The position numbers were made by a program, and so were the translations under genes. 64,000 nt of DNA from an uncultured Rhizobium sp. (GTDB taxonomy: Bacteria > Bacteroidota > Bacteroidia > NS11-12g > UBA955): NCBI GenBank assembly GCA_964492925.1, contig CAZBMF010000001.1, forward strand, positions 3,452-67,451, in the 5' to 3' direction. Below, piece by piece: positions 35,447 through 58,924 of the stretch (position 1 is its first letter; every line of letters starts with the position of its first letter). The notes under the pieces were generated by a model. The model saw only the letters and a list, made by a program, of their open reading frames with translations, did not search any database and had not been told where the DNA came from.

Positions 35447-36216
35447 TGAAGGTAGTACTTTTAGCCGGTGGATTAGGTACCCGATTATCGGAAGAAACAG
35501 ACACAAAGCCAAAACCCATGGTAGAAATTGGTGGGAAACCCATTTTATGGCATATCATGAAAATCTATAGCCAATATGGATTTAATGAATTTATTGTATG
35601 TTTGGGATATAAGGGTTATGTAATAAAAGAGTATTTTGCTAATTACTTTAGACATCAGTCCGATATTACCATTGATTTAAAAAACAATACCACTGAAATT
35701 CATAACTCGCAGGCCGAACCTTGGAAGATTTCATTGATTGATACCGGTATTGCAACAATGACGGGTGGTAGAATTAAAAGAATTCAAAAATATATTGGAA
35801 ATGAACCCTTTTTATTGACCTATGGTGATGGAGTTTCAGATATCAATATTCAAGAATTAATTGACTTTCATCAACAAAGTAATCACCTATTAACGGTTTC
35901 ATCGATACAGCCTACAGGTCGCTTTGGTGCTTTGGAAATTGATGAAAATCAAATGGTTAAAAAATTCGTCGAAAAACCTAAGGGTGATGGCGCTTGGATA
36001 AATGCTGGTTTTTTTGTTTGTGAACCGGGAATCTTTGATTTTATTGGTGGTGATGATACAATTTTTGAAAAAGAACCACTCGAAAAAATTGCTGAGTTAA
36101 ATCAATTAAAAGCGTTCAAACATGAAGGTTTCTGGAAGCCTATGGATAGTATGCGCGATAAATATGAACTTGAAAGTTTATGGCAATCAAATAAAGCTCC
36201 ATGGAAAACTTGGTAA
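35446..36216 (+). CDS. rfbF: Glucose-1-phosphate cytidylyltransferase
   Basis: 'LAGGLGTRLSEETDTKPKPMVEIGGKPILWHIMKIYSQYGFNEFIVCLGYKG' is near-canonical RfbF/DdhA. Confidence 0.9.
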   Translation: MKVVLLAGGLGTRLSEETDTKPKPMVEIGGKPILWHIMKIYSQYGFNEFIVCLGYKGYVIKEYFANYFRHQSDITIDLKNNTTEIHNSQAEPWKISLIDTGIATMTGGRIKRIQKYIGNEPFLLTYGDGVSDINIQELIDFHQQSNHLLTVSSIQPTGRFGALEIDENQMVKKFVEKPKGDGAWINAGFFVCEPGIFDFIGGDDTIFEKEPLEKIAELNQLKAFKHEGFWKPMDSMRDKYELESLWQSNKAPWKTW

Positions 36217-37277
36217 ATCAAACAATTTTAAATCAATTTACAAATAAAAAAATAGTCATAACCGGACATACGGGATTTAAAGGTGCTTGGCTAGCACAAT
36301 TGTTATTAAATGTTACACAAAACATTAAAGGAATTGCATTAAAACCCAATACTTCTCCTAATTTATTTGATTCCCTCAATTTAGAAAAGAAACTTGATAG
36401 CGTATTTGCCGATATCAATGATTTTGAAAATCTTGAAAAACAAATTTTATCATTTGAGCCAGATTATATTTTTCATTTAGCAGCCCAACCGCTTGTGAGG
36501 TATTCATATGTGCATACTTTAGAAACCTATAAAACCAATGTAATTGGAACCGCCAATATTCTCGAGTCTTGTAAGAAATTGACAAATCCTTGTGTGGTAG
36601 TTTGTATTACAACTGATAAAGTGTACCACAATAAAGAAGAGCATTATGCCTACAGTGAAGGTGATCATTTGGGGGGACATGATCCATATTCTTCAAGTAA
36701 AGCGGCGGCAGAATTAATAATTGATAGCTATAGAAAATCGTTTTTTTCTGAAGGACATATACAAGTGGCAAGTGCCAGAGCGGGAAATGTTATTGGAGGC
36801 GGTGATTGGTCTGATGATAGATTGGTGCCCGATATTGTAAAATCGATACAGAAAAATTCCAAAATTATTTTAAGAAATCCTTCATCTGTTCGTCCTTGGC
36901 AACATGTTTTAGATCCACTATTTGGATATTTAATATTGGCTGCAAAAATGAACTTAAATCCTCACCAATTTACAGAGGCATGGAATTTTGGTCCTAATAA
37001 TGGCGAAGAAAAAACAGTTTCTGAAGTTGTTAATATATTTTATGAAACTTATGGATTAGAGCCTGAGGTAAATGTGCAAAATTTAAACGAACCTCACGAG
37101 GCTAACTTATTGATGTTGAATATCAATAAGGCAAAATCAATATTGGGTTGGCAACCAACTTGGAATACTACACGAGCAATCAAAGAAACAGCGTTTTGGT
37201 ATAAATCTTTAAACCTGAACAATGCTGAGTTTTTGGTAAACAAACAAATAAAGACTTTTCTTTCTAATGAACTTTGA
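36201..37277 (+). CDS. rfbG: CDP-glucose 4,6-dehydratase
   Basis: '[12 protein letters not shown]' and the 'YSSSKAAAE' YxxxK motif. Gene order follows rfbF. Confidence 0.9.
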
Positions 37278-38577
37278 TTATAAAAACATTCAATCTGATG
37301 ATTTAAAACAAAAATTATCAGAAATTATCTCTCAAAACATTCATCAATCTATTATTCCAGGGCAGCATTATATACCTGTTACTGGAAAAGTATTAGATGT
37401 AGATGATATCTTACACGGTGTAGATGCAACATTAGATGCTTGGTTAACTACAGGAAGATACGCAAAGGATTTTGAAAAAGATTTCGCAGCCTATTTTGGT
37501 AGTAAAGCATCTGTGCTTGTAAATTCAGGATCCTCGGCAAATCTCGTTGCTTTTTACGCTTTAACAAGTCCTAAATTGGGCGAAAGAGCCATTAAACCAG
37601 GCGATGAAGTTATTACTGTTGCTGCAGGATTTCCAACCACAATCAATCCGATGATACAATTTGGTTGTGTGCCTGTTTTTCTCGACATAGATATCCCTGC
37701 TTATAATATTGATGTTACTCATCTAGAGAAAGCTATTTCCCCAAAAACAAAAGCAATTATGATTGCTCATTCTTTAGGTAATCCATTTAATCTTGAAGCC
37801 GTAAAAGCGATTGCTGATAAATATAATTTATGGTTAATTGAAGATGATTGCGACTCATTGGGAGCTACCTATAATGGTCAAAAAACTGGAACCTTTGGTG
37901 ATCTTGCAACTGTTTCATTTTACCCAGCGCATCATATCACGATGGGTGAGGGAGGTGCAGTTTTGGTTAACAATATAAAATTATTGAGACCAGCATGGAG
38001 TTTTAGAGATTGGGGTAGAGATTGTTACTGTGAACCTGGTAAAGACAATACTTGCGGAAGGAGATTTGATTGGCAGTTAGGACAATTACCATGTGGATAT
38101 GACCATAAATACACGTATAGTCATATTGGTTTTAACTTAAAGGTAACTGATACACAAGCTGCAATTGGTTTGAATCAACTGAGGAAGGCCGATCAATTTG
38201 TTGCAAAGCGTCGTGAAAATCATAAAATGTTATATGATTTAATGAAACCTTTGGAAGACTATTTTATTTTACCTGAGGCAACACCAAATTCTAATCCATC
38301 ATGGTTTGGTTTTATGCTAACAGTGAGGGAAGGTTCAAATATTGATCGCAATGAATTGGTAAAATATTTAGAAGAACATAAAATTGGTACCAGATTGTTT
38401 TTTGGAGGAAATATGTTAAAACAGCCGGCCTATGAGCATATTAATCATAGGGTTGTAGGAAGTTTAACAAATTGCGACGTGGTAATGAACCATTCATTCT
38501 GGTTGGGTGTATGGCCTGGATTAAATCAAGAACATTTTGAATATATTGTAAAAACAATAAAAGAGTTTATTGGATGA
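37267..38577 (+). CDS. rfbH: CDP-4-keto-6-deoxy-D-glucose 3-dehydrase (E1, RfbH/DdhC), PMP-dependent with a [2Fe-2S] motif
   Basis: DegT-fold. His replaces the usual PLP-Lys ('[15 protein letters not shown]'). Cys motif C-X-C-X7-C ('[11 protein letters not shown]') matches E1 of the 3,6-dideoxyhexose pathway. Confidence 0.9.
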
Positions 38578-39110
38578 ATAATGCACTCGAGCAAATAACC
38601 GAAGGTTTATACAAAATTAATCATCGATTTGCTGAAGATAACAGAGGAAATTTCACAAAAATTTTTCAGTTTTCTAATTTGCCTATTGAGGATTCATCTG
38701 TTTCATTTGTTGAGAGTTATATAACAGAATCTCATGCCAATGTTATTAGAGGGATGCATTTTCAAACACCTCCATTTGATCATTGGAAATTGGTGACAGT
38801 TTTAAATGGGACTATTGTTGATGTAGTTTTAGATTTGAGAAAAGGAGATGGATTTGGGAAATATTATTCATTTCAATTAGATGAAAATAGTAAATTTTCT
38901 TTATTGATCGCTCCTGGATTTGCCCATGGATTTAAATCAATGGAAGATCATACCAAATTGATATATCATGTATCTTCAGAATATTCGGCACAACATGATT
39001 TTGGTATCCGTTATAATAGTTTTGGTTTTGATTGGAACTGTGAAAACCCGATAATGTCGGAGCGAGATAATAACTTTATACCATTTTCACAATATTTGTC
39101 ACCATTTTGA
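38574..39110 (+). CDS. RmlC-like cupin sugar-nucleotide 3,5- or 5-epimerase (AscE/RmlC family)
   Basis: 178 aa. '[31 protein letters not shown]' and '[12 protein letters not shown]' resemble the dTDP-4-dehydrorhamnose 3,5-epimerase fold. Confidence 0.75.
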
Positions 39111-39943
39111 AAAAAGTACTTATAACTGGCGCAACAGGATTTATTGGGTCAAATTTATTATCGAAGTTACAAGATGAAATAGACATCAGTGTTCTAGCAT
39201 TAAAGAGAAGTAGCTCTTCCGGACCAGTATTCCAATTAAATAAAGAACCAGAATGGTTGAGTTCTGAATTGGAAAATGTGCAATCAGAATCGCTTAAATC
39301 AGTTGAAATATTAGTCCATCTTGCTGCACATTCTGCCAATACTCCATACGATAACTTAGAAAATTGTATCAAGTATAATTATGAAAATCCTATTCTGTTA
39401 TTTCAAAAAGCATACGAAAATGGCATTAAAAGGTTCATCGTAACAGGTACTTGTTTTGAGTATGGTGAGTCTTGTAATCATTATGATTATTTACCTACAG
39501 ATGCTCCTTTGATTCCAAATAATTCATATGCGCAATCTAAAACAATGTTTTTTAATTGGTTAAAGGATTGGTGTGTAGGCAAAGAAATTCAAATAGTATA
39601 TCTACGTTTATTTCAAGTTTTTGGACCTGGTGAACAAAGCTCAAGGTTATGGCCTATGATTATCGATTCTGCTCAACAAAATAAAGACATTATTTTATCG
39701 CCTGGTGAACAGATTAGGGATTTTATTCATGTAAATGATGTAGTTTCAAAAATATTGGATAAGATAAAGGAAGAAAAAGTAAGTTGGGGTCTTTTATCAG
39801 AAAATGTAGGCACCGGACATGGAATTACGGTTCGTGAATTTGTTGAAAGATGGTATAATTCACTAGATGGAAAAGGAAAATTAAAATTCGGCGAATTGCC
39901 TTATAAGCCTGGTGAATATATGAGAATTGTTGCAAAACTTTGA
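39107..39943 (+). CDS. NAD-dependent epimerase/dehydratase-family SDR (putative CDP-4-keto-3,6-dideoxyhexose 4-reductase)
   Basis: 'ITGATGFIGSNLLSKL' Rossmann and the 'YAQSK' YxxxK motif. Position directly after the E1 and epimerase genes. Confidence 0.7.
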   Translation: MKKVLITGATGFIGSNLLSKLQDEIDISVLALKRSSSSGPVFQLNKEPEWLSSELENVQSESLKSVEILVHLAAHSANTPYDNLENCIKYNYENPILLFQKAYENGIKRFIVTGTCFEYGESCNHYDYLPTDAPLIPNNSYAQSKTMFFNWLKDWCVGKEIQIVYLRLFQVFGPGEQSSRLWPMIIDSAQQNKDIILSPGEQIRDFIHVNDVVSKILDKIKEEKVSWGLLSENVGTGHGITVREFVERWYNSLDGKGKLKFGELPYKPGEYMRIVAKL

Positions 39944-40907: not shown

Positions 40908-42204
40908 AAATACCATATTTAAAAATCAAGTAATATGGTCTTTGGTTATCAGGGGAGGCGGTATATTCATAACATTAATACAAGTTCCATTGTTGCTTGG
41001 AATTTTAGAACAAGAAAAATATGGAGTTTGGTTAACACTTCTTAATGTGGTTAATTGGGTGACTGTTTTTGATTTAGGCATAACAAATGGACTTAGAAAT
41101 AAATTATCGGAGTTGTTTGTGCAGCAAAAATTTGATGATACAAGAAAATATATTTTCAATGTATTTTTATTTTTAACCATATTTTTTGTATCGATTTATG
41201 CCGTTTTTTTTCTCTTTCAAAATCATTTAAATTATCAAAAGCTTTTCAATACTAAAACAATTGAAAATGATGAATTATCATTAATTTTCAACTTGGTATT
41301 TTCAGGTATAATTTTTAGATACATCATTCAAACGCCTATAGTATTAGAAACAGCAAGAGGTTTTACTCATATTTCTAATGGTTTACTTTTATTCGGCAAT
41401 TCATTAAGCTTAATTTCAATTTTTATATTGAGTGTAGTAAACAAAAGTTACTTAAATTTAACATCTGTTGGAATCATTTCAATTTGGATACCCAATTTGG
41501 TGTATGTTGGATATTTTGTGTGGTTTATTTTTAAGGATAATGGGTTTTTTATGCCCAAGATTAGTGAGATAAATATCCTTTCAATTCGTCCTTTAATGAA
41601 AATAAGTTTTCATTTTTTTCTCATTCAAATTACTGCCCTTATCATATTTGCAAGTTTACCCTTTCTACTTACCCAATTGTTAAACCCAAATAGCGCAACT
41701 GAGTATAATTTAGCCAACAGCATTTTTAACATTCCTTTACTCATTATGGGTGTTTTGTGCAATCCAATTACACCATTGGTTACTCAGGCATATGTTCAGA
41801 AAGATAAAGTATGGTTGGTTTCCATTTTAAAGAAGTTTTACATCTATACAGCAGTGTTGTTGTTGGTCATATGGATGTTGTATGCCTTTTCAAATAGAAT
41901 TTATTACTTGTGGATTGGTAACAAGGTTACCATCAACAATTATTTGGTGTTGTGGATTGCCATATACACGAGCATTAATATCATCTTACAACCTTTTTCA
42001 AATATTTACAATGGAATTGGCAAATTGGATGTAATTGCATACCTGTCGCCAGTTGGTGTGATTCTTTTTTTGACCACTTCGATATATTTTACTCAACAAT
42101 TGCAAAATCCTACAGGTGTAGTTATAGGTTTAATTTCCTCATCACTCATAGGATTGATTTATATACCATATAAAGTGTTTTTTGAAATCAAAAATTTAGA
42201 TTGA
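40900..42204 (+). CDS. wzx: Oligosaccharide flippase (Wzx, MOP superfamily)
   Basis: 434 aa, about 12 TM helices. N-terminal 'VIWSLVIRGGGIFITLIQVPLLLGILEQEKYGVWLTLLNVVNWVTVFDLGITNGLRNK' is typical of Wzx/RfbX. Confidence 0.75.
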   Translation: MDKNTIFKNQVIWSLVIRGGGIFITLIQVPLLLGILEQEKYGVWLTLLNVVNWVTVFDLGITNGLRNKLSELFVQQKFDDTRKYIFNVFLFLTIFFVSIYAVFFLFQNHLNYQKLFNTKTIENDELSLIFNLVFSGIIFRYIIQTPIVLETARGFTHISNGLLLFGNSLSLISIFILSVVNKSYLNLTSVGIISIWIPNLVYVGYFVWFIFKDNGFFMPKISEINILSIRPLMKISFHFFLIQITALIIFASLPFLLTQLLNPNSATEYNLANSIFNIPLLIMGVLCNPITPLVTQAYVQKDKVWLVSILKKFYIYTAVLLLVIWMLYAFSNRIYYLWIGNKVTINNYLVLWIAIYTSINIILQPFSNIYNGIGKLDVIAYLSPVGVILFLTTSIYFTQQLQNPTGVVIGLISSSLIGLIYIPYKVFFEIKNLD

Positions 42205-43598
42205 CCTCCGAAATTAACATACTTTATATTGTAGCTTGGATTTCTGTTTTCATTCAAGTTTTAACACTTATAGTGCAATTTGCAAAATATGGTTACAAAT
42301 CATTGTTACATCCTGCTTTTTGGTTTGTTACTGTTTGGATAGGAAGTTTTCTTTCGTTTATTCTTTATTTAGATCTTGGATTCACATTCATTATTTTTTA
42401 TCCTGATGATGTATTAGAATTGATGGTATATGTAGATTTCACCTCAATCTGCGTTTTATTATTTGGTTGGTTAAAATCAAGTAAGGTAAAGGAAGTACCA
42501 ATGAAGTTTAATTTTAAAATAGATGAACGCTTGTTAAAATATTTGAGCATCATCTTATTTTCGGTTGTACTTGTCAATTGGTATAAATCGGGTTCTGATA
42601 TTGTAAGTAATCGTATGGCCGGAAGTGCGGAAATGTTGAAGAATCAGAAAATGGTGTCACAAATTGGGGTGGCAACCTTGTTATTCAACATTGCGAAATC
42701 TGCAAATTTGGTGTTACTAACATTCACTTCGTATAAGATAACCTTAGCGGTTATCAATAACACACTGAAGAATATAAAGTTCTATTATTACTTACCTACT
42801 TTAACCATGATTCTTGGTACAGTAATTTCCGGGGGAAGAGCTGGTGTTATTTATGCATTGATTTATTTTTCTACTGGGCTATTTATTGCTTTAGCCACAA
42901 TGCTAAGTGGTCAGTTGAAACTATTAAAAAAAATGAGTGGTGTTATGTTAATGGCAGTTGTTGGGTTTTCACTCTATTCTACATTAATCAACCAATTAAG
43001 AGCAGAAAGTACAGACTATGATCCTTCATATGAGAAATGGAAAGAATACCCAGCTTTAATTCCTATTTCTGGTATTGTTCAGTATTTAACTGATCATTAT
43101 CCCGGGTATCAATTGAGAAAAGAAGATAGTGTAACACCAGAACTGGAAATGGGAGAAAAAACATTCTCCTTTATTTTATTTTATAATATTCCATTTATTT
43201 CTCAGTTGTTTAATGCACCTGTAGGTCTAGCAAGTTATTATGGATTTAAATTACCGGAGGCCGTGGAACTAGGTGCTCGTGGTTTGGAATGGGAAAATAC
43301 CACCGCTACCATATTTCTAAATGTATATGATGATTTTGGCTATTATGGAACCTTCGTTGCTATTTTTATCTTCTGTTTTCTTACAGAATTGGTGTTTGTG
43401 AGGTTTGTACTGGCTGAAAACGATCATTATCTGTTGTCAATGTTTCCATTTGCCATATTTTTATATTTATGGACACAATCAATTTTCTCGCATCATACAA
43501 CCGGTAGTTGGATGGGAACACTTTTTTATCAATATTTGATCTTGGATATTTTGAATTACTTTTTTACACCTAAAATTCTAACCACAAAAATAGAATGA
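42201..43598 (+). CDS. Polytopic membrane protein, putative O-unit polymerase (Wzy-like)
   Basis: 465 aa, at least 10 hydrophobic helices with a larger loop region. No recognisable family signature; Wzy proteins are notoriously divergent. Sits next to wzx. Confidence 0.45.
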   Translation: MTSEINILYIVAWISVFIQVLTLIVQFAKYGYKSLLHPAFWFVTVWIGSFLSFILYLDLGFTFIIFYPDDVLELMVYVDFTSICVLLFGWLKSSKVKEVPMKFNFKIDERLLKYLSIILFSVVLVNWYKSGSDIVSNRMAGSAEMLKNQKMVSQIGVATLLFNIAKSANLVLLTFTSYKITLAVINNTLKNIKFYYYLPTLTMILGTVISGGRAGVIYALIYFSTGLFIALATMLSGQLKLLKKMSGVMLMAVVGFSLYSTLINQLRAESTDYDPSYEKWKEYPALIPISGIVQYLTDHYPGYQLRKEDSVTPELEMGEKTFSFILFYNIPFISQLFNAPVGLASYYGFKLPEAVELGARGLEWENTTATIFLNVYDDFGYYGTFVAIFIFCFLTELVFVRFVLAENDHYLLSMFPFAIFLYLWTQSIFSHHTTGSWMGTLFYQYLILDILNYFFTPKILTTKIE

Positions 43599-45437: not shown

Positions 45438-46635
45438 AAAGAACATATTGTTTTTGCATGAAGGTACATTTCCGGAAGGATTTGCAATGGCATTTAGGTT
45501 GAAAATGTACTTTAAAATGTTGGATGATAATTTGTTTAATTACAAAATTATAGTGCCGCGAAAATCAACAATCGCTTCTATTGAAAACAATGATTCACAT
45601 ATAGATTATTTGTGGAAAGAGGTGGTTCCTCAAAATAAATTTCTCAGAAAGTTTTTATATATAATTCAAGACTTTAAATGGACCATTCAATTATTTAAAA
45701 ATAGGAAGAATATAGATGTGATATTTGTAGCGGCTATGTCTATTTTCCCTCTATTTTTAATTACCTTAATTTCTAAAATTTTGGGAAAGAAAGTGATATT
45801 GGAATTGAATGAATATCCTTATTCAAGTCAAGGTGGTAACGCTTTAGATGATTTAGAAATTTATAAAAAATATAGAAGATTTATCACAGAGAAATTTATT
45901 TATAAAAATATTTATGGTGTGGTCTCTATTTCTCCCAAACTTAGTGAATATATCATAAAAATTAATAATCAATTAAAAGTGGTTGAAATACCAGTTTTAT
46001 GTGACGTTGATTATTTTAAAAATATAGAATCACTTAGTCCTACAGAAAAGAAGGTACCAACCCACAAATTTACTGTTCATGCGAGTAATTTGAGTGAATA
46101 TAAGGATGGTTTTAGTACAAATTTAAAGGCCATTGGAGAATATAATCAATCGGTTCAGGAAATTGAAAATAAAATCCATTTAATCATCACCTTGAATGGC
46201 ATTCCTCATTTATTGGAATCTAGTTTAAGACCTATTATTGATCATTATCAGTTAAATGATTATTTACATTTTGTAGGATATTTAGATGAAAGTGAACTTT
46301 ATAATTTGTATAAAAACGCTGAATTTTTAATCATTAATAAACCCGATAATCTTCAAAATACTTATAATTTTCCAACCAAATTATCGGAATATTTATACTT
46401 TGGGAAAATACTGTTGGTTTCTACAAATCATGCTATGGATCAGTATTTAGAGAAAAATGTTCATTGTAAGAAGTTTGAATCGAACAATTTCGAAGAATTA
46501 ACATCGTTCATCCAGGAAACAATGAGTTTGATAAACAATTTTTCCTATCGAGAAGCTTCTCAGCGATTGGTTGAAAACGAATTTGATTACAAATCAAACG
46601 CCAATGAATTTAATCAATATTTTACACAAATTTGA
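45430..46635 (+). CDS. Putative glycosyltransferase (divergent GT4-like)
   Basis: 401 aa. C-terminal 'FLIINKPDNLQNTYNFPTKLSEYLYFGKILLV' resembles the GT4 EX7E motif. Otherwise weak. Confidence 0.45.
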   Translation: MIKKNILFLHEGTFPEGFAMAFRLKMYFKMLDDNLFNYKIIVPRKSTIASIENNDSHIDYLWKEVVPQNKFLRKFLYIIQDFKWTIQLFKNRKNIDVIFVAAMSIFPLFLITLISKILGKKVILELNEYPYSSQGGNALDDLEIYKKYRRFITEKFIYKNIYGVVSISPKLSEYIIKINNQLKVVEIPVLCDVDYFKNIESLSPTEKKVPTHKFTVHASNLSEYKDGFSTNLKAIGEYNQSVQEIENKIHLIITLNGIPHLLESSLRPIIDHYQLNDYLHFVGYLDESELYNLYKNAEFLIINKPDNLQNTYNFPTKLSEYLYFGKILLVSTNHAMDQYLEKNVHCKKFESNNFEELTSFIQETMSLINNFSYREASQRLVENEFDYKSNANEFNQYFTQI

Positions 46636-47738
46636 AAAATACAATTCTTAATTTTATTAAAAATCTAGGTCCTAACATTCAAACACCTATGGTGATTTTT
46701 GAATCGGATGATTGGGGATCTTTTAGAATACCAAATAATGAAGTTTATGCCGCTTTAGAATCCAAAGGAATTAAATTAAAATTCCCTGGTTCTGATCAAT
46801 ACAATTTGTATGATAACTTAGAGTCAACTTCTGATTTGGAAAACTTATTTGAAGTATTAAGTTCTTTTAAGGATGTACATGGGAATACTGCAAAATTTAC
46901 CCCCTTGGCATTGGTAGCAAATCCTAATTTCAATAAAATTTCTAATTCTGGATTTTCAGAATATCATTACATGAATTTACAAGATTCATACAATTATTAT
47001 CAAAAAGGTGATGTATTAAACTTGTTTAAGATTGGAATAAAAGAAGGGTTATTTATACCACAATTTCACGGACGTGAACATTTGAACGTAGCAGTTTGGT
47101 TAAGGGCATTGAATCAAAACATTGGAGATTCTAGAGTTGCCTTTGAGCATGAAGTTTGGGGTCACATTAACACTCATCCTAGAAATATATTTTATCAAGC
47201 TGCTTTTGATTTAGAATATTTAGATGATGTAGACTCACAGAAAGAGATTATCCAAGATGGATTAACATTGTTTGAAAGTACTTTTGGATATCGGGCGCAA
47301 TATTTTGTCCCTCCAAATGGACCAATGAACAATGCATTGTTGCCGGTCTTGAAAAATTGTGGCATAGATTTGGTATCATCCGATACTGTGCAAGTTGAAG
47401 TTCTCGGAAATGGACGAACAAAAAAACACTTCCGATATATGGGGATGAAAAATAAATATGCTCAAACTTTCATCAAAAGAAATTGCTTTTTCGAACCAGC
47501 TGGGAACGATAAAGATTGGATTGATAGTTGTTTGAGGGATATTGAATTGGCATTTAAAAATGGTAAACCAGCTGTAATTAGTACGCATAGAGTGAATTAT
47601 GTTGGTGATAGAAGCCTCACAAATAGAGTTCAAGGATTAAAACAATTGACCGCTCTAATTCAGAAAATGTTAATTAAATGGCCGAATCTTGAATTTGGCA
47701 CAACGCCCATTTTACTTGATAAATTCCGTAAGAATTGA
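46632..47738 (+). CDS. Uncharacterised conserved protein, paralog A (CE4/NodB-like motifs?)
   Basis: 368 aa. Shares 'ESDDWGS', 'ANPNF.KI..SGF.EY.Y', 'PQFHGREH.NV..W', 'GKPA.I..HRVN.VG' and 'KWP..EF' with the next ORF. Confidence 0.5.
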   Translation: MKNTILNFIKNLGPNIQTPMVIFESDDWGSFRIPNNEVYAALESKGIKLKFPGSDQYNLYDNLESTSDLENLFEVLSSFKDVHGNTAKFTPLALVANPNFNKISNSGFSEYHYMNLQDSYNYYQKGDVLNLFKIGIKEGLFIPQFHGREHLNVAVWLRALNQNIGDSRVAFEHEVWGHINTHPRNIFYQAAFDLEYLDDVDSQKEIIQDGLTLFESTFGYRAQYFVPPNGPMNNALLPVLKNCGIDLVSSDTVQVEVLGNGRTKKHFRYMGMKNKYAQTFIKRNCFFEPAGNDKDWIDSCLRDIELAFKNGKPAVISTHRVNYVGDRSLTNRVQGLKQLTALIQKMLIKWPNLEFGTTPILLDKFRKN

Positions 47739-48847
47739 AATTTATAGACCAAATAAAGCATCATTCAGTTTCGATTCCAGGTTTTCGGACGAAAAAGAAA
47801 TTGGTTGTTATTGAGTCAGACGACTGGGGGTCACAAAGAATACCGAGTAAACAAGTTAGGGATAAATTAATCCAAAATAATTTACTAGACGTTAGAAATA
47901 AGATAAATTTCTTAGACACATTAGAATCTAAAGAAGATTTAATTTCACTCTACGATTGTTTGTTAAAATTCAAGGATAAAAATGGCAATCATCCCATTAT
48001 TACAGCAAATTTTTTGACGGCGAATCCAGATTTTGATAAAATTAAATCCTCTGGATTTACTGAATATTATTACGAAACAATTGATAAAACTTATGCAAAA
48101 AACACGGCAGAAGATTTAAATATGTTGGAGGTGATAAAAGATGGAATGTTGCAAAATATTTTCAGGCCGCAGTTTCATGGAAGAGAACATGTAAATGTTA
48201 ACTTATGGATGAAGCAGTTGAGAAATCAAAATTCCGTATCATCGAAATCATTTGATTCTAGTGTTTATTGCTTAGATGATACTAGTATAAGCAAGAGGTC
48301 AAATTTAATGGCATCTTTTGACTATCAAACAGTTGAAGAAATCGAGGAAATTAACAACATTTTTGTTGACGGATTTCAGCATTTCGAACAATTATTTGGC
48401 TTCAAATCGAAATCTTTTATTGCCCCGTGCTATGTTTGGGGAGAACAACTTGAGAAAACGGCTTTTGATAAAGGGATAAAATTATTTCAAGGTATTTACA
48501 ATCAATATATACCCAATCCACAAGGTGATAAATATCGTTTAAATTGGCATTTTAACGGCGCGCAAAACAAAAATGGCCAATTTTATTTTGTTAGAAATGC
48601 GTTTATGGAATTGTTTGAAAACGATAAAATAGACCATGTAGAGGCTTGCTTAAAACGAATGGAAATAGCATTCACCTGGGGGAAACCTGCCATAATTGGC
48701 ATGCATAGGGTGAATTTTGTGGGTGGTTTGGAAATAAAAAATCGCCAGAATACACAAACCAAACTTGAAGAATTATTTAAAAAAATGTTAAAAAAATGGC
48801 CGGATATTGAATTTATTTCAACCGATCAATTAATCAATTATATTTAA
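47735..48847 (+). CDS. Uncharacterised conserved protein, paralog B of 46632..47738
   Basis: 370 aa. About 30% identity to the upstream ORF and the same motif set. Tandem duplication with a 4-nt overlap. Confidence 0.5.
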   Translation: MKFIDQIKHHSVSIPGFRTKKKLVVIESDDWGSQRIPSKQVRDKLIQNNLLDVRNKINFLDTLESKEDLISLYDCLLKFKDKNGNHPIITANFLTANPDFDKIKSSGFTEYYYETIDKTYAKNTAEDLNMLEVIKDGMLQNIFRPQFHGREHVNVNLWMKQLRNQNSVSSKSFDSSVYCLDDTSISKRSNLMASFDYQTVEEIEEINNIFVDGFQHFEQLFGFKSKSFIAPCYVWGEQLEKTAFDKGIKLFQGIYNQYIPNPQGDKYRLNWHFNGAQNKNGQFYFVRNAFMELFENDKIDHVEACLKRMEIAFTWGKPAIIGMHRVNFVGGLEIKNRQNTQTKLEELFKKMLKKWPDIEFISTDQLINYI

Positions 48848-49965
48848 TGGCATTCGAAAACAAACACATTATTGACTTACAACCTTACAAAGTTGCCAGC
48901 CATAAAATTTGGGAAGTAGATCCAAACGACAGAAACACGGTATTGAAATTAGACTGGAATGAGGCTACAATACCACCGAGTCCGTTGGTGAAATCTAGAA
49001 TCATGGAACTTGTAAGTGAATCTTCTTTTTATCAGTTTTATCCTTCAACTCATAGTGAAACTCTTCTTGCGAAACTTTGTGATTATGCTGGAGTTATGTC
49101 TGATAATCTTCAGTATTTCCCTAGTTCTGATAGCTTACATGAATACATTGCAACTGTTTTTTTAAGTGAAAAGGATACAGTACTCATGTTGGGACCTACC
49201 TATGATAATTTCAGGTTAACTTGTGAATCACATGGTGCGAAATCTTGTTATTTTAATTATGGCGATAATTTTGAATTAAATGAAGGCTTATTTGAGTCTG
49301 AAATTTCAAAATTGAATCCTAAATTGGTGTATATCTGTAATCCGAATAATCCAACCGGCAATTTAATTTCTGAATCTTATATAGAACATTTATTGAGATT
49401 ATTTCCCAATTCATTGTTTCTGATTGATGAGGCGTATACAGAATTTAGTGGGCATTCTGTTAAAGATTTGGTGGTTCAATATGATAACATATTAATCACC
49501 AGAACTTTGTCAAAGGCGTTTGCTTTGGCAAATTTTAGAATTGGCTACTTAATTGCTCCAGCTGAAATCATTAAAAACATATCCAAGATAAGAAATCCCA
49601 AAAACTTTACAACATTTTCACAAGAAGCAACAATTGCTGCGCTTTCAGATGTACAATACATGCGTGATTATGTGGAAAATGTAAAATTGGCAAAAGGGAA
49701 ATTTATTGACTTTCTCAGGGAAAATTATCAGCAAATTCAGCCGTATGATGGATTTGGAAATTTTATATTAATTAAATTTCCTAATGATAATTTGAAGGGG
49801 GCATTTCTGAACCACATGGAAAATAATAATATTTTTCTAAGAAATTTAACTCATAGTTCACTGTTGAATAATTGTTTGAGGATTACAATTGGTACAATTG
49901 AACAAATGCAAATTGTACAAAATAGAATAGCAGAATTTTGGTCAACTTTTCAAACAAAGATTTAA
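48847..49965 (+). CDS. HisC/CobD-family PLP-dependent enzyme (class I/II aminotransferase fold; aminotransferase or phospho-amino-acid decarboxylase)
   Basis: 372 aa. 'VYICNPNNPTGN', 'LIDEAYTEF' and 'ITRTLSKAFALANFRIGY' (PLP-Lys in the SKAF context) are typical of the histidinol-phosphate aminotransferase / threonine-phosphate decarboxylase family. Confidence 0.8.
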   Translation: MAFENKHIIDLQPYKVASHKIWEVDPNDRNTVLKLDWNEATIPPSPLVKSRIMELVSESSFYQFYPSTHSETLLAKLCDYAGVMSDNLQYFPSSDSLHEYIATVFLSEKDTVLMLGPTYDNFRLTCESHGAKSCYFNYGDNFELNEGLFESEISKLNPKLVYICNPNNPTGNLISESYIEHLLRLFPNSLFLIDEAYTEFSGHSVKDLVVQYDNILITRTLSKAFALANFRIGYLIAPAEIIKNISKIRNPKNFTTFSQEATIAALSDVQYMRDYVENVKLAKGKFIDFLRENYQQIQPYDGFGNFILIKFPNDNLKGAFLNHMENNNIFLRNLTHSSLLNNCLRITIGTIEQMQIVQNRIAEFWSTFQTKI

Positions 49966-50624
49966 TTTTATTCGATTTCTGTGAGACGTTGGTAGATTTC
50001 CAAACTGCCGACGCTTACGTTGATTTTGTGAGAAAGAACATTGATTCTCCCAGAATGCAATTTTTGGAATTCACACTGAAATTATTCAAAAAAATTAAAA
50101 TTATTTCCCTCTGTTACAAATTTTTCCCTAATAAATCAATTGAAAAGAGATTGAAATTGTATCAATTGAAAGGATTAAACGAAATTATTTTAAAAGATTT
50201 AGCTGGTTTATTTTATTCTTTAGAAGTAAAACCAAATTTAATACCAGAAACCCTTGAATTAATGAATGACTGTATAAAAAAGAACTGTGAAGTAGTTCTA
50301 ATTTCAGGGGGATATTCAATATATCTGCAACATTTTTGTAATGAATATCATATTAAAAAATTATACTCTACTGATGTAGCCTTTAGTGAAAATAAATGTA
50401 GTGGTAAAATATTGGGTTTAGATTGTTTGTTTGAGAATAAAGTAACTTTGATTGAAAATGGAGGATTAAACCTTAGTGACTATGAAACAAAAGTCGTGTT
50501 TACCGACAGTTCATCAGATCTTCCTTTACTTAATTGGGCCGATAAAGGTTTCGTTATTTCTAAAAATATTCCACAATCTTGGGCTACAGAGTTAAATTTT
50601 GAACAAATAATCTGGAGAAAATGA
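49938..50624 (+). CDS. HAD-superfamily hydrolase (putative phosphatase)
   Basis: TTG start. N-terminal motif I 'LILFDFCETLVDF'. Later 'VVLISGGY' (motif II-like) and 'VFTDSSSDLPLL' (motif IV-like). Confidence 0.55.
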   Translation: MVNFSNKDLILFDFCETLVDFQTADAYVDFVRKNIDSPRMQFLEFTLKLFKKIKIISLCYKFFPNKSIEKRLKLYQLKGLNEIILKDLAGLFYSLEVKPNLIPETLELMNDCIKKNCEVVLISGGYSIYLQHFCNEYHIKKLYSTDVAFSENKCSGKILGLDCLFENKVTLIENGGLNLSDYETKVVFTDSSSDLPLLNWADKGFVISKNIPQSWATELNFEQIIWRK

Positions 50625-51559
50625 AACAAATATTTAGAGAATTAAAGTATAAAGGTATTTTTGGTTTTTACTTGTATATATTCATTGTTAAAGTATATAA
50701 AATTTGTGTCAATTATTCTATTTCCGATCGAAAGTATATCAGTCGTAAATTTAAATTTTATCATGGTTACGATTTAAATTGGAATAAACTTGAAACACTC
50801 AATGAAAAAATGCAGTGGTTTAAAATTTACGATCGTAATGAGCGTTATGTAGCTTTGTCTGATAAATTTAAGGCGCGTGATTTTTTTAAAAATAAATTTG
50901 GCGAAGAATATTTAGTGCCTTTGGTGTTAGAAACACAATGCGTTGAAGATTTGAATTTTGATAATTTTCCAGATTATCCGGTAGTTGTTAAAGCCAATCA
51001 CGATTCTGGTAATTATCGCATTGTTAGAGATAAAAATGAAATTGATTTTAGAAAACTTCAAGTTGATGCCAAAGCTTGGTTGAAATTCAATTATTATTGG
51101 GAAGATCGTGAATGGCCTTACAAGCATATTGAACCAAGAATTGTGGTTGAAAAAATGCTTCAAACCAATGAAGGTAAAATCCCAAACGACTATAAATTGA
51201 ATTGTTTTAATGGAAAAGTGGAATTTGTGTATGTATCTGTAGATCGTGAAGGTATTAATAAGAGAAATATTTACAGCAGGGATTGGGAGCCATTATATTT
51301 TACTTGGAATAAAAAATATTACGATCACAGCAATCTAAGAGGACCTGAAATTAAAGCGCCATCTACTTTTGCGAAAATGATTGAATTTGCTGAAATCATT
51401 GCCAAGGATTACCAATATGTGCGGGTGGATTTTTATGATGTAGATGGACACTTATATTTCGGTGAAATTACGCAATACCATGGCGGTGGATTTGATCAAA
51501 TGTTGCCCAAAGAATGGGATTATAAATTTGGTAATATGATATCAATAAATGCCGATTAA
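50621..51559 (+). CDS. TupA-like ATP-grasp amidoligase family protein
   Basis: 312 aa. 'LNEKMQWFKIYDRN', 'EEYLVPLV', 'WEDREWPYKHIEPRIVVEKML', 'NDYKLNCFNGKVEFVYV' and 'VRVDFYDVDGHLYFGEITQYHGGGF' match the family signature as I recall it (ATPgrasp_TupA). Confidence 0.65.
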   Translation: MKQIFRELKYKGIFGFYLYIFIVKVYKICVNYSISDRKYISRKFKFYHGYDLNWNKLETLNEKMQWFKIYDRNERYVALSDKFKARDFFKNKFGEEYLVPLVLETQCVEDLNFDNFPDYPVVVKANHDSGNYRIVRDKNEIDFRKLQVDAKAWLKFNYYWEDREWPYKHIEPRIVVEKMLQTNEGKIPNDYKLNCFNGKVEFVYVSVDREGINKRNIYSRDWEPLYFTWNKKYYDHSNLRGPEIKAPSTFAKMIEFAEIIAKDYQYVRVDFYDVDGHLYFGEITQYHGGGFDQMLPKEWDYKFGNMISINAD

Positions 51560-55302: not shown

Positions 55303-55918
55303 TTCTGTCTCAAAAATTTTGTACTTGTTTATCAAATCATTCTTTGATTTTGTTTTTGCTTTTATTCTTTTTACGTTCTCCATTCCAATTTGGTTGTGGT
55401 TGTTGATTAAGTTTAAATTTGACTTAAAAAAAATTATTTTTCTTCAACCAAGACCAGGTAAAAATGGGAAAATATTCAATCTTATAAAGTTTAAAACTAT
55501 GACCGATGAAAAAGATGAAAACGGTAAACTTTTGCCGGATAGATTGAGGTTGACATCCTTTGGAAGGTTTCTTCGTGCTTCTTCGTTTGATGAATTACCA
55601 CAAATGATCAATGTTATGATGGGTGATATGAGTTTAATAGGTCCGAGGCCGCTTTTGGTATCATATTTGCCTTTGTATAATGAACGACAAATGAGAAGAC
55701 ATGAGGTGAAACCGGGTATTACAGGATGGGCCCAAATAAATGGAAGAAATGAACTTTCTTGGACCGATAAATTCGAACAAGATGTATTTTACGTTGAAAA
55801 TATATCGTTAAAATTAGATTTGAAAATATTTTGGGGAACAATTTTAAACGTTGTCTCTCGTCAAGGTATCAGTGGAGAAGGAACTGAAACAATGACACCA
55901 TTTACAGGAAATAATTGA
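55292..55918 (+). CDS. Undecaprenyl-phosphate sugar phosphotransferase, small monotopic PglC/WecP-like initiating transferase
   Basis: N-terminal re-entrant helix '[31 protein letters not shown]'. '[17 protein letters not shown]', '[21 protein letters not shown]' and '[13 protein letters not shown]' are canonical Bac_transf motifs. Confidence 0.85.
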
Positions 55919-56568
55919 TCATGATGAAACCAATTTTAATTTATGGCGCTGGGGGTTTTGGTAAAGAAGTTGCTTGCTTAATCAATGAAATTAATGAAAT
56001 TGAACCCACATGGGAAATTTTAGGTTATATCGACGATGGAGTTAATCCGGGTACCGAAATTAAATATGGCAGTGTTTTGGGGGGATTGGATTATTTGAAT
56101 CAACAACCTTCCGAAATTGCTGTCGTTTTTTCAATTGCCAATGCCATTATTTTGGAAAAAGTTGTCTCTAAAATTACCAATCCGTTGGTCTATTTTCCCA
56201 ATATTATATCGCCAGGGGTAAAGTTTTATGACACTCCTTCCTTTCAACTTGGACGCGGAAATGTAATTTCAAATGGTTGCAGATTTAGTTGTGACGTGAA
56301 AATTGGCGATTTCAACCTCTTCAATGGCTTTGTGGCATTAGGTCATGATGTTCATGTTGGAAGTTTCAATATTTTTAGTCCCTCTGCTAGATTGTCTGGT
56401 TCAGTATTTGTGGGGGACAAAAACTTCTTCGGGGTGAATTCTATTGTACTGCAAGGTATTAAAATTGGCAATCATACAAAGATTGGTGTAATGAGTGTAC
56501 TGATGAAAGATACAAAAGATGGATATTTGTATTTCGGAAATCCAGCACGAAAATTAACAGAACAATGA
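55915..56568 (+). CDS. NeuD/PglD/WlbB-family sugar N- or O-acyltransferase (LbH)
   Basis: '[17 protein letters not shown]' N-terminal Rossmann-like domain followed by hexapeptide repeats ('VGSFNIF...[28 protein letters not shown]'). Confidence 0.8.
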
Positions 56569-57632
56569 GTTTTTTAAACATTTCAAATGTTAAAATTGCA
56601 GGAATTGCCTCCTGTGTCCCTCAAGAAAAAATTGAGAATTTAAATGCTGCAATTTTTGATTCACCAGAGGAAGCGCAGCGATTTGTAGATACAACAGGCA
56701 TTAAAAAACGACGTGTAGTTGGCAATCAGCGAATTTGTACATCTGATTTGTGTGTTCAAGCGGCAGAAAAATTGTTGTTGGAATTAAATTGGTCAAAGGA
56801 GGAAGTTGATTGTTTAATTTTTGTAACGCAAACACCGGATTATATTTTACCAGCCACTTCGTGCATCATTCAAAACAGGTTGGGATTGTCTAAAGATTGT
56901 TATTCTTTGGATATATCTTTGGGTTGCAGTGGATGGGTTTATGGATTATCGGTTATTGCATCTTTGATGCAAAGTGGCATGTTTAAAAAGGGTTTATTGC
57001 TTGTTGGCGATACAACCACGGTTACCAAATCGGCCAAAGATAAAAGTACCTTTCCGCTATTTGGGGATGCTGGTACTTGCACATCGTTGGAATTCCAACA
57101 AGGTGCTGCGAATATGTATTTTCATTTCGGTACCGATGGGTCTGGTTTTGAATCTATTATGATCAAAGATGGTGGATTTAGACATCCATTTTCGGAAGAG
57201 TCATTAAAAGAGAAAGAATTTCCTAATGGAATCATTAGAAATGACTTACAAAGTATATTGAATGGTGCAAATGTATTTACTTTTGGCATTGGAAGGGCAC
57301 CAAAATCTGTTAAAGCATTGTTGGAAAAGTTTGATTTAGAGCTAGAAAACGTTGATTACGGATTGTTTCATCAGGCAAACATGATGATGAATGAAAAAAT
57401 TCGAAATAAACTTGGCTTGAGCCCAGAAAAAGTACCTTATTCAATTGATGAATTTGGGAACACATCTTCGGCTTCAATTCCGTTAACCATGAACTATAAA
57501 TTGTCTGAAAATTTGAAAAACAGCAAAAATAAATTCATTGCGTGTGGTTTTGGTGTGGGATTGTCGTGGGGAAGTGTTTATTTTGAAACAGATAAAATTA
57601 TTTGTCCTGAAATTCAGGAATATAAAAATTAA
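56565..57632 (+). CDS. 3-oxoacyl-ACP synthase III (KAS III / FabH-like), copy 1
   Basis: Catalytic triad contexts 'GCSGWVYGL' (Cys), 'HQANMMMNE' (His) and 'FGNTSSASIPL' (Asn). Confidence 0.85.
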   Translation: MSFLNISNVKIAGIASCVPQEKIENLNAAIFDSPEEAQRFVDTTGIKKRRVVGNQRICTSDLCVQAAEKLLLELNWSKEEVDCLIFVTQTPDYILPATSCIIQNRLGLSKDCYSLDISLGCSGWVYGLSVIASLMQSGMFKKGLLLVGDTTTVTKSAKDKSTFPLFGDAGTCTSLEFQQGAANMYFHFGTDGSGFESIMIKDGGFRHPFSEESLKEKEFPNGIIRNDLQSILNGANVFTFGIGRAPKSVKALLEKFDLELENVDYGLFHQANMMMNEKIRNKLGLSPEKVPYSIDEFGNTSSASIPLTMNYKLSENLKNSKNKFIACGFGVGLSWGSVYFETDKIICPEIQEYKN

Positions 57633-57636
57633 AAAA

Positions 57637-57864
57637 ATGGAACAAAACTTTATTAAACTTTTTGCAGAAACTTTAGAAATTGAAGATAGAGAAATTTCTT
57701 TAAACGATACATTTAGAGATTACCCTGAGTGGGATTCATTGGCATTACTTTCGGTAATTGCCATGATAGATGATGAATATGATGTGATCATCGAAGGCAA
57801 TGATTTTGCTGAATTAAAAACAATTGGCGATTTGATTGAAGCCATTCAAAAAGCAAAAGAATAA
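57637..57864 (+). CDS. Acyl carrier protein (dedicated, locus-associated)
   Basis: 75 aa, acidic. Phosphopantetheine-attachment context 'YPEWDSLALLSVI' (DSL). Confidence 0.8.
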   Translation: MEQNFIKLFAETLEIEDREISLNDTFRDYPEWDSLALLSVIAMIDDEYDVIIEGNDFAELKTIGDLIEAIQKAKE

Positions 57865-57865
57865 T

Positions 57866-58924
57866 TTGGCAATATTAAAATTTAACGGTGTTGGAATAAC
57901 GGCAATGGCTGGTGCTGTTCCGAAGAACATTGTTAAAAATTTGGAATATACCACCTTTTTCAACGAGCAAGATGTTCAAGAAATCGTTGAAAAAACAGGA
58001 ATATTTGAAAGGAGATTTGCTCCTGAAGGAATGTGTGCAAGCGATTTGTGCTTTGCAGCGGCAGAACAGTTAATCTCAGACAATAAGATTGACAAATCTG
58101 AAATAGATTTGCTCATTTTTATCTCTCAGACGGCTGATTTTAGGATGCCGGCAACTGCTATACTTTTACAAGATAGGTTGGGACTGTCGAAATCCACAAT
58201 GGCTTTTGATATAAGTTTGGGCTGTTCAGCGTTTGTTTATGGTTTGTCGGTGGTTTATTCTTTGATGGAAAGGAGTGGTTTCCGAAAAGCTTTAATTTTA
58301 GACGGTGAAACACGTTCAAGAATTTACCATCCTAAAGATCGAAAGACGGCTTTTTTATTTGGGGATGCTGGAGTTGCAGCTTTAGTAGAAAGGGATGAGA
58401 AATTTGGAGATAGCTTTTTCTCTTTGGGAAGCGACGGTTCCAAATCTCAACTAATTTCGATGAAAGCGGGAGGCTATCGATATCCGAGTAGCGTTGAAAC
58501 TTTAACGGAAAAGGTGATTGATGAGTTTGGCAATATATCAACTGATGAACATGGAAGAATGGATGGTGGAGAGGTGTTTAATTTTGTTTTGAAGGAAATT
58601 CCAAGCCATGTAAAAGAATTACTGTTGGAATCGAAAATGAGTCAAGATAGCATTGACTTTTTTGTATTTCATCAAGCCAATTTGTTTATGAATGGTTATT
58701 TGCAAAAAAAGTTCAAAATTGAAGATTCGAAATTTCCATTATCAATAAGCAAGTTTGGAAATACTTCTTCCGTATCTATACCCTTGACCATTGTAAGTGA
58801 GTTAAAAAACAAATTATCGGGTCACAATCAATTGTTGTTATGCGGATTTGGAGTGGGTATGAGTTGGGCAAGTTGTGTCATAAACACGAATGAAATTAGA
58901 ATATCTCAATTATTAGAAATATGA
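57866..58924 (+). CDS. 3-oxoacyl-ACP synthase III (KAS III / FabH-like), copy 2
   Basis: 'GCSAFVYGL', 'HQANLFMNG' and 'FGNTSSVSIPL'. Start is uncertain: TTG at 57866 directly after the ACP stop, or TTG at 57836 overlapping the ACP. Confidence 0.8.
   Translation: MAILKFNGVGITAMAGAVPKNIVKNLEYTTFFNEQDVQEIVEKTGIFERRFAPEGMCASDLCFAAAEQLISDNKIDKSEIDLLIFISQTADFRMPATAILLQDRLGLSKSTMAFDISLGCSAFVYGLSVVYSLMERSGFRKALILDGETRSRIYHPKDRKTAFLFGDAGVAALVERDEKFGDSFFSLGSDGSKSQLISMKAGGYRYPSSVETLTEKVIDEFGNISTDEHGRMDGGEVFNFVLKEIPSHVKELLLESKMSQDSIDFFVFHQANLFMNGYLQKKFKIEDSKFPLSISKFGNTSSVSIPLTIVSELKNKLSGHNQLLLCGFGVGMSWASCVINTNEIRISQLLEI

Follow-up and report, generated by a model that had tools for sequence, protein, structure and literature searches.

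What do two adjacent genes of no named family do in the middle of a surface-polysaccharide locus? The question is raised by par1 and par2, a gene pair in a 64,000-nucleotide stretch of DNA (hereafter the window) from an uncultured bacterium labelled Rhizobium sp. (assembly GCA_964492925.1, contig CAZBMF010000001.1, positions 3,452 to 67,451). An earlier note on this DNA had suggested that their products are divergent polysaccharide deacetylases or esterases, with motifs resembling the metal site of carbohydrate esterase family 4 (CE4, or NodB) enzymes. Our analysis assigns them to two ancient branches, A and B, of a large family whose members are predicted to fold as NodB/CE4-type barrels. With a probability of about one half, we propose that par1 and par2 encode two cytoplasmic metal hydrolases, probably de-N-acetylases, which differ in specificity and act on the lipid-linked repeat unit of the polysaccharide.

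The pair and the junction between the two genes are as follows:

46632..47738, + strand: par1, A-type family member of 368 amino acids (aa); open reading frame (ORF) with a TTG start, 100% match to database cluster P0001
47735..48847, + strand: par2, B-type family member of 370 aa; ORF with a TTG start, 100% match to database cluster P0121
47735..47738, + strand: TTGA overlap coupling par1 and par2 (TTG start of par2, TGA stop of par1), read from the sequence

These coordinates and the 4-nt overlap agree exactly with the earlier description. The junction between par1 and the glycosyltransferase family 4 (GT4)-like gene upstream of it is also TTGA (46632–46635), and that between par2 and the next gene reads TAATG (48845–48849). 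The TTG starts are backed by the identical proteins of public assemblies, all of them metagenomic, for which the same gene calls were made (368 and 370 aa), and by homologs that align with par1 and par2 from residue 1. On the strand opposite par1 and par2, no ORF reaches 100 aa. TTG starts and start/stop overlaps of 1–4 nt are also listed for many other genes of the operon (26673 to 59920), a pattern that may be due in part to the ORF lister's rule of taking the "first start codon".

The two proteins are 35% identical over 358 aa (BLASTP, E = 1e-65). On this sequence comparison their paralogy is far above chance, as had been claimed, at a higher identity than the approximately 30% first given. 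The four motifs reported as common to both proteins are all present at equivalent positions: ESDDWGS, PQFHGREH, HRVNYVG, and KWPNLEF occupy residues 24–30, 143–150, 319–325, and 349–355 of par1, and their equivalents residues 27–33, 145–152, 324–330, and 354–360 of par2. The second motif follows the first by about 119 aa rather than about 110 aa.

Homologs of both proteins are abundant. In a set of 5.8 billion sequences (90% clustering), par1 has more than 4,700 and par2 more than 5,700 matches at E ≤ 1e-3. An exhaustive profile search of 1.84 billion representatives yielded a family of 2,111 clusters at 50% identity, 1,005 of them with E ≤ 1e-30, and among the best 150 matches listed none forms a bridge to any named family. 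Most members are unnamed, and a few are called "polysaccharide (de)acetylase" by NCBI or UniRef. They come mainly from Bacteroidota (Flavobacterium, Cyclobacterium, Chitinophagaceae, Bacteroidales, Rikenellaceae, and Paludibacter), with further members in Chlorobiaceae and in one Calditrichota genome; loci with the family were found in, among others, cultivable isolates of Flavobacterium, Cyclobacterium, and Carboxylicivirga. No paper on the gene module turned up in one literature search. The family is new, unmodelled, and large, and has no characterised member; it lies inside a known superfamily and is not a new kind of system.

The earlier note could not place the family, and our profile searches agree with it. 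NCBIfam gave no match for par1 or par2, and neither protein reached the threshold of a Pfam model. The closest models to par1 are glycoside hydrolase family 57 (GH57, PF03065; 19.8 bits, E 5e-4, cutoff 21.2, residues 201–280 only) and Polysacc_deac_1 (PF01522; 15.7 bits, E 0.015, cutoff 23.1, residues 202–247 only), and par2 lacks even a sub-threshold match. Among 74 diverse members, sub-threshold matches recur to GH57 (33/74, best E 1e-5), Polysacc_deac_1 (15/74, best E 8.5e-4), and DUF2334 (10/74), and to no other model; a few database members carry a precomputed match to PF03065. GH57, Polysacc_deac_1, and DUF2334 belong to one Pfam clan, that of the glycoside hydrolase/deacetylase barrels.

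The predicted structures point to the same superfamily. AlphaFold2 models based on 74-sequence alignments reached a predicted local distance difference test score (pLDDT) of 96.1 for par1 and 95.6 for par2, with a predicted template modelling score (pTM) of 0.93 for each, and the order of secondary-structure elements is identical in the two models. Foldseek comparison with the PDB retrieved the NodB/CE4 and GH57 superfamily with a probability of 1.0 for both. The comparison with the NodB fold that the earlier note had called for yields many NodB structures, at low similarity (8–13% identity, TM-score 0.26–0.6, root-mean-square deviation 5–10 Å). The best matches of par1 are HP0310 (3QBU), the GH57 enzyme 5WU7, 3RXZ, and, in fifth place, ArnD (8T0J); those of par2 are ArnD, followed by the GH57 enzymes 1K1X and 3P0B, then 1Z7A, 3RXZ, and others. 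Further matches include 3S6O, PuuE, BA3943, a Vibrio chitooligosaccharide deacetylase (COD), and human NDST1. Normalised to the target, the TM-score is 0.51–0.60 for proteins of the NodB1.2 type and 0.26–0.36 for the larger GH57 enzymes. According to these models, par1 and par2 adopt a distorted beta/alpha barrel of the NodB/CE4 type. The structures 3RXZ, 3QBU, 1Z7A, and 3S6O belong to the heterogeneous "NodB1.2" subclass, whose function is mostly unproven and alongside which ArnD is placed (PMC10967932).

We scored residue conservation in 216 A-type and 314 B-type sequences, using par1 numbering; invariant columns came initially from the 74-sequence alignment and strands from DSSP of the predicted models. 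D26, D27, H146, H150, and H319 are conserved in 100% of both the A and the B sequences. At 96–100% in both sets are E24, S25, D26, D27, W28, G29, R32, D61, D68, T90, N97, and P98, as well as H146, E149, H150, W156, R283, N284, E288, H319, R320, and N322, with R320 at 100% and N322 above 99%. In the window, the motifs are encoded at the following positions:

46701..46718, + strand: par1 codons E24-S-D26-D27-W-G29 (MT1-like), at the C-terminal end of beta1; 98–100% conserved in A and B
47067..47081, + strand: par1 codons H146-G-R-E149-H150 (MT2-like His-x3-His), at the end of beta3 and in the following loop
47295..47333, + strand: par1 codons 222–234, the MT3-equivalent loop after beta4, within the region (201–280) of the sub-threshold PF01522/GH57 matches
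47586..47597, + strand: par1 codons H319-R320-V-N322 (MT5-like His), H319 being the last residue of beta7
47813..47830, + strand: par2 codons E27-S-D29-D30-W-G32 (MT1-like), invariant alignment columns, strand 22–31
48176..48190, + strand: par2 codons H148-G-R-E151-H152 (MT2-like), invariant, strand 143–149
48704..48715, + strand: par2 codons H324-R325-V-N327 (MT5-like), invariant, strand 319–324

The strands of the par1 model and the conserved residues that go with them are:

residues 20–28: beta1, conserved E24 to G29
residues 89–98: beta2, conserved T90, N97, and P98
residues 144–147: beta3, conserved H146, then E149 and H150
residues 224–225: beta4, conserved P228
residues 279–281: beta6, conserved R283, N284, and E288
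residues 314–319: beta7, conserved H319, then R320 and N322

In the models, the conserved residues are therefore predicted to lie at, or just after, the C-terminal ends of the strands, which is the active-site face of such barrels. The Asp-Asp, His-x3-His, and late His picked out by the earlier note all prove to be family invariants at these strand ends.

In NodB enzymes, the tandem Asp of MT1, the two His of MT2, the Pro of MT3, and the His of MT5 are also found at strand ends (PMC10967932). MT1 is an Asp pair that ends beta1 and serves as catalytic base and metal ligand; MT2, in the loop that follows beta3, supplies two metal-binding His and reads H-[ST]-x2-H or, in NodB2, H-[TS]-x3-H; MT3 is R-P-P-Y-G, in which the Arg pairs with the catalytic Asp and the Pro is conserved and hydroxylatable; and the MT4 Asp forms a relay with the MT5 His (PMC10967932). 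The order of the motifs is the same in the new family: tandem Asp, two His, Pro, and His. Its MT2 has the x3 spacing, with Gly replacing Ser/Thr after the first His, and the MT3 Pro is kept as P228 (89% in A, 78% in B). In NodB2 and Agd3 the MT3 Arg is replaced from elsewhere (PMC10967932); by analogy, the invariant R32, R283, or R320 might stand in for it in this family. Judged by its conservation, E288, after beta6, is a candidate for MT4. The segment of about 119 residues between MT1 and MT2 has invariants of its own (D61, D68, T90, N97, and P98).

The earlier note had read the pair as a duplication suggestive of two substrate specificities. In a neighbour-joining (NJ) tree, a single branch parts 37/37 upstream (A) from 37/37 downstream (B) copies. 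When 535 sequences are scored with hidden Markov models (HMMs) trained on each set, the distribution is bimodal, the A-versus-B score difference being +142 for par1 and −115 for par2. The sequences thus indicate that the A/B duplication is older than the spread of the family and is conserved across phyla. A recent duplication at the locus is thereby rejected, and the idea of a simple local event has to be dropped. At least two family copies on the same strand occur in 63 of 80 sequences (79 reference-genome loci and the window). By ORF extraction, 41 of the 79 sequences with a full-length family gene (78 reference loci and the window) have an adjacent A–B pair, in which the order, A then B, is fixed and the gaps are mostly −17 to +10 nt. 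Both genes are present but separated, by 0.5–8 kb and within a 10-kb range, in about 17 loci. Four loci with full 10-kb flanks have A without B in a 250-aa screen (L026, L038, L051, and L077), although a separate screen gave a weak second family match in L026. Searches from four B-type proteins led to an A–B pair (L085), to a divergent B-like gene paired with B (L087), and to B alone (L086 and L088), in both cases directly downstream of a gene for an EpsG-like polymerase. As A and B are each found alone, an obligate heterodimer is disfavoured and two separable activities are favoured. In L088, which holds a solo B, a canonical PF01522/DUF3473 polysaccharide deacetylase gene (12914–13113) stands beside an ATP-grasp gene, so a single locus can house both a member of the new family and an enzyme of the classical CE4 type.

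The positions that discriminate A from B lie in two loops, with a few outside them (N92 in B, W176 and Q189 in A). The main discriminator is the loop 222–234 after beta4, which reads A-x-x-F-V-P-P-x-G-P-x-N-N in A and S-x-x-F-I-A-P-C-Y-x-W in B and is branch-specific at positions 222, 226, 227, and 230–234. The second is the loop 249–256 after beta5, with Q252-G253 in B and E256 in A. Different specificities usually show as loops on the active-site face that diverge around unchanged catalytic residues, so that the two specificities proposed earlier fit the sequence data.

No transmembrane segment or signal peptide was found in par1 or par2 (maximum hydropathy KD19 of 0.94 and 0.73), and only one of the 535 family members exceeds the KD19 threshold of 1.6. 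The absence of a hydrophobic segment points to a cytoplasmic location. A secreted, polymer-level deacetylase of the PgaB, IcaB, or PelA type was rejected on the same grounds. The genes lie in an operon, from 31029 to about 61146, that constitutes a Wzx/Wzy-type heteropolysaccharide locus. It encodes the export and chain-length proteins Wza and Wzc, a flippase with 12 transmembrane segments, and a Wzy candidate with nine, together with a hexapeptide acyltransferase, an initiating Bac_transf protein, an N-acyl-sugar module, and seven glycosyltransferases. Among the last are GT2 genes at 39981 and 51549 and GT4 genes at 43595, 45430, 52421, and 53496, the count of seven including the GT4-like gene upstream of par1.

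From these data we propose a mechanism. Each protein would be a cytoplasmic, divalent-metal-dependent hydrolase, with the metal held by an Asp-His-His triad (D27, H146, and H150). The neighbouring carboxylate of D26 or E24 would serve as the general base and H319 as the general acid, in a reaction that would remove an N-acetyl group from a sugar or, less likely, an O-acetyl or another N-acyl group. In glycoconjugates, glucosamine-type residues usually arise by de-N-acetylation after transfer of the N-acetylhexosamine, as with LpxC, PIG-L, PgaB, and NDST. Because the proteins have no export signals and are encoded in a Wzx/Wzy operon, they most likely act on the undecaprenyl-diphosphate-linked repeat unit, or else on a nucleotide sugar; in this they would resemble ArnD, unlike the secreted polymer deacetylases. 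A and B would act on two different residues or positions and would not be redundant. That par1 and par2 are active NodB-type hydrolases we consider probable; our confidence in any particular substrate is low.

Several observations weigh against this reading. By sequence, par1 and par2 are not CE4 proteins: the CE4 membership suggested by the motifs fails at the level of profiles, par1 scoring 15.7 against a PF01522 cutoff of 23.1 and par2 not at all. Searches of PDB sequences with both proteins and with the family profile gave nothing real; the "significant" matches were to designer pentatricopeptide repeat (PPR) proteins, in which weak repeat matches are summed. Alignment by hhalign of the 535-sequence family profile with a 116-sequence ArnD profile gave a probability of 0.16% and no residue-level mapping. 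The structural likeness is at the level of the superfamily only (TM-score 0.4–0.6), with GH57 enzymes matching the models about as well as NodB enzymes. The canonical MT3 Arg is absent, its position being taken by Val in A and Ile in B, and the alignment has no conserved Asp after beta5 that could serve as the MT4 Asp. The spatial clustering of the Asp and the two His is a prediction from the topology of the strand ends in the models. Finally, the family has no characterised homolog, and O-deacetylation would be an alternative to N-deacetylation. Fold and catalytic pattern favour the divergent polysaccharide deacetylases of the earlier note, whereas the failure to score as CE4 by sequence, the missing MT3 Arg, and the equal fold-level match to GH57 speak against them.

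Compared with known systems, the best structural matches (E 4e-7 to 1e-4) are the NodB1.2 proteins HP0310/HpPgdA (3QBU), 3RXZ of M. smegmatis, PA1517 (1Z7A), and BpCE4 (3S6O). As in that subclass, each motif retains just its one key residue, the second MT2 His is not preceded by Ser/Thr, and a Pro or Gly marks MT3 (PMC10967932). The new proteins differ from them in the low identity (8–13%, with no detectable sequence relationship), in being about 70–80 residues longer, in the long MT1–MT2 span with its own invariants, in the E-S-D-D-W-G context of MT1, and in their conserved A/B gene pair. ArnD is a NodB-fold deformylase of undecaprenyl-phosphate-linked 4-deoxy-4-formamido-L-arabinose (Und-P-L-Ara4FN), which strips the N-acyl group from a polyprenyl-linked sugar before it is flipped (PMC12690121; PMC10967932). 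It is the top Foldseek match of par2 and the fifth of par1, and offers by analogy a working model for both proteins. However, ArnD passes PF01522 in precomputed matches and par1 and par2 remain below its threshold; the hhalign probability is about 0.2% against the family profile (0.24% for the single E. coli ArnD); E. coli ArnD starts with D-V-D where the family has D-D; and ArnD is membrane-associated (PMC10967932), whereas par1 and par2 have no evident membrane element.

Canonical CE4 enzymes (PF01522), which include peptidoglycan and chitin deacetylases and acetylxylan esterases, share with par1 and par2 the barrel, the tandem Asp at the end of beta1, the two-His motif after beta3, the conserved Pro after beta4, and the His that ends a late strand. 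They differ in that par1 and par2 are sub-threshold, have H-x3-H instead of H-[ST]-x2-H, lack the MT3 Arg and an assignable MT4 Asp, appear cytoplasmic rather than secreted, and have a much larger MT1–MT2 insert. The GH57 enzymes (1K1X, 5WU7, and 3P0B) belong to the same superfamily of 7-stranded barrels and are the commonest weak Pfam match. They are, however, much larger, with extra domains, and the new family has an invariant Asp/His metal-site pattern and no conserved acid at the inferred nucleophile site.

Clustering of the neighbouring genes across loci brings out an order that recurs: GT4, EpsG-like polymerase, A, B, an amide-forming cassette, and GT4. EpsG-like genes occur in 50 loci and stand directly upstream of a family gene in 38 of these. 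Of 40 loci flanked by 6 kb or more on both sides, EpsG is present in 31 and one or more amide-forming enzymes (ATP-grasp or AsnB-type) in 30; these counts come from loci with the family, and the link that they suggest is tentative. The cassette after B consists either of PGA_cap, an AsnB-like amidotransferase, and a RimK-like ATP-grasp protein, or of an aminotransferase, a haloacid dehalogenase (HAD)-type hydrolase, and a TupA-like ATP-grasp protein. The window has the second type:

48847..51559, + strand: HisC-like class I/II aminotransferase, HAD hydrolase, and TupA-like ATP-grasp protein, assigned by Pfam, with HisC proteins as the best PDB matches

This trio directly follows the family gene or genes in the window, L033, L071, L085, and L086, and is present in 2–3 of the 79 loci selected with A. 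The same three enzyme classes occur in C. jejuni as Cj1437, which converts dihydroxyacetone phosphate to serinol phosphate, Cj1435, a phosphatase, and Cj1438C, which catalyses ATP-dependent amidation of glucuronate (PMC11800397). By this analogy, a uronamide of the serinol or ethanolamine type may be part of the window glycan. Of the annotated genes of the window, none was identified as encoding a UDP-glucose dehydrogenase. An obligate tie of the pair to its neighbours in the window was rejected, as the hexapeptide acetyltransferase occurs in 14 and the GT4-like gene in 12 of 79 loci.

Could A and B instead be the subunits of one hetero-oligomeric enzyme, made 1:1 through translational coupling? 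The fixed order and short gaps of the 41 adjacent pairs, the TTGA overlap in the window, and an ancient split in which both branches retain all catalytic residues would fit such an enzyme. The loci with a single gene (A alone in L038, L051, L077, and, apart from its weak second match, L026; B alone right after EpsG in L086 and L088), the B-like and B genes of L087, and the roughly 17 loci in which A and B are 0.5–8 kb apart make this rather unlikely. A tie to the adjoining amide cassettes is likewise doubtful. A and B would then not be general deacetylases of N-acetylhexosamines, and would either expose an amine for acylation or edit or hydrolyse the amide or acyl intermediate formed by the ATP-grasp or AsnB-type enzyme. 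The presence of such enzymes in 30 of the 40 well-flanked loci, and the occupation of the slot right after B by one of the two cassettes, are consistent with this. Yet a quarter of the loci have none, and the counts cover only loci with the family. The C. jejuni pathway is not known to include a NodB-like enzyme. Moreover, for ligases of the Cj1438C type, which act on serinol phosphate and a uronic acid, a sugar amine is not required (PMC11800397).

The two proteins could also be GH57-like glycoside hydrolases or transglycosylases, which trim or remodel the glycan, for example near the polymerase, and are no deacetylases. GH57 enzymes use a Glu nucleophile after beta4 and an Asp as acid/base. 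Such a role would agree with the prevalence of GH57 among the sub-threshold Pfam matches, with the par1 score of 19.8 bits against a cutoff of 21.2, with the precomputed PF03065 matches of some members, with the GH57 structures among the top Foldseek matches, and with the several invariant acidic residues (E24, D61, D68, E149, and E288). It is nevertheless improbable: the structural matches involve just a portion of far larger proteins, with the lower target-normalised TM-scores reported above; the loop 222–234, where the GH57 nucleophile would lie by an inferred mapping that is not residue-aligned, has no conserved acid; and the invariant DD, HxxxH, and H constitute a NodB metal-site signature. 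Least credible is that one or both proteins are catalytically dead paralogs with a structural or regulatory role. The CE4 pseudoenzyme BA3943 (6HM9, 7BKF) is among the structural matches and the canonical MT3 Arg is missing, but conservation of the candidate catalytic and metal residues at 96–100% in both branches, over hundreds of sequences, would be unexpected of dead enzymes. Our preferred reading remains that of two hydrolases, probably de-N-acetylases.

A bolder extension of the two-deacetylase reading, to which we attach little weight, is that A and B are dedicated parts of a conserved supermodule made of a Wzy-like polymerase, A, B, and the amide cassette. They would de-N-acylate the repeat unit at two positions, and the ATP-grasp/AsnB enzymes would amidate or amino-acylate the same unit, to give charged or zwitterionic glycans. 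The family would then be a new one of the carbohydrate-esterase type, and the module would be widespread in Bacteroidota and Chlorobi-type genomes, which is an equally tentative proposal.

Many surface-polysaccharide loci carry at their core genes of this large family, which has neither a Pfam or NCBIfam model nor a characterised member. In capsules and O-antigens, charge and immunogenicity depend on free amino groups and amide decorations. Should A and B be repeat-unit de-N-acetylases, they would explain the origin of such groups in these bacteria and provide two new specificities for glycan engineering. For annotation, a new two-subfamily model would be justified, in place of the present names, which vary between "hypothetical protein" and "polysaccharide (de)acetylase". 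With its divergence confined to two active-site loops, the clean A/B split offers a ready system for the study of specificity in NodB-fold enzymes, and the pair is a useful lead for glycan biochemistry, with a comparative-genomic handle.

Other features of the loci concern the sugars and their assembly. In the window, the genes at 35446–39943 encode in a row a nucleoside triphosphate (NTP)-transferase, a short-chain dehydrogenase/reductase (SDR) of the 4,6-dehydratase type, a 436-aa DegT-family protein, an RmlC-like epimerase, and an SDR reductase, which looks like a pathway to the nucleotide-activated form of a deoxy or dideoxy (amino) hexose. Two multi-transmembrane proteins of the window, with about 11 (34187–35446) and about 9 (42201–43598) hydrophobic segments, have no Pfam match. 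One of the two is the probable Wzy polymerase; both fall outside the cluster of EpsG-like proteins found next to the pair in other loci. Further downstream, a small acyl carrier protein (ACP)-like ORF (57538–57864), with the phosphopantetheine-site motif EWDSLALL and a true start probably at an internal Met near 57640, sits between two FabH-like genes (56565–57632 and 57836–58924). These are preceded by a PglD-like acyltransferase gene (55915–56568) and followed by genes for a ketoreductase-type SDR (58921–59688) and a DegT aminotransferase (59920–61146). As a group, the genes at 55915–61146 resemble a module for making an N-(hydroxy)acyl amino sugar, and the order FabH, PP-binding, FabH, and ketoreductase recurs in L087. 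In L001, L041, L059, L031, and many more loci, the block is EpsG-like, A, B, PGA_cap (CapA-like), AsnB-like, RimK-like ATP-grasp, and GT4, exemplified by:

L041, 8696–16474: EpsG-like/A/B/PGA_cap/AsnB/RimK/GT4 block

The left border of the window locus is formed by minus-strand genes for an FkbM-type methyltransferase (27485–28219), RlmN (28241–29278), and the GTPase Der/EngA (29310–30620), and the GC content falls from about 0.38–0.42 to about 0.28–0.35 inside the polysaccharide locus. Loci of Bacteroidota style are found in metagenome-assembled genomes labelled Rhizobium, Bifidobacterium, Dojkabacteria, or Proteobacteria (L071, L078, L050, and L016), labels that are probably due to mis-binning or mislabelling. 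In L071 and L076, labelled Chitinophaga pinensis, Der and RlmN are 75–79% identical to those of the window and occupy the same place upstream of the locus.

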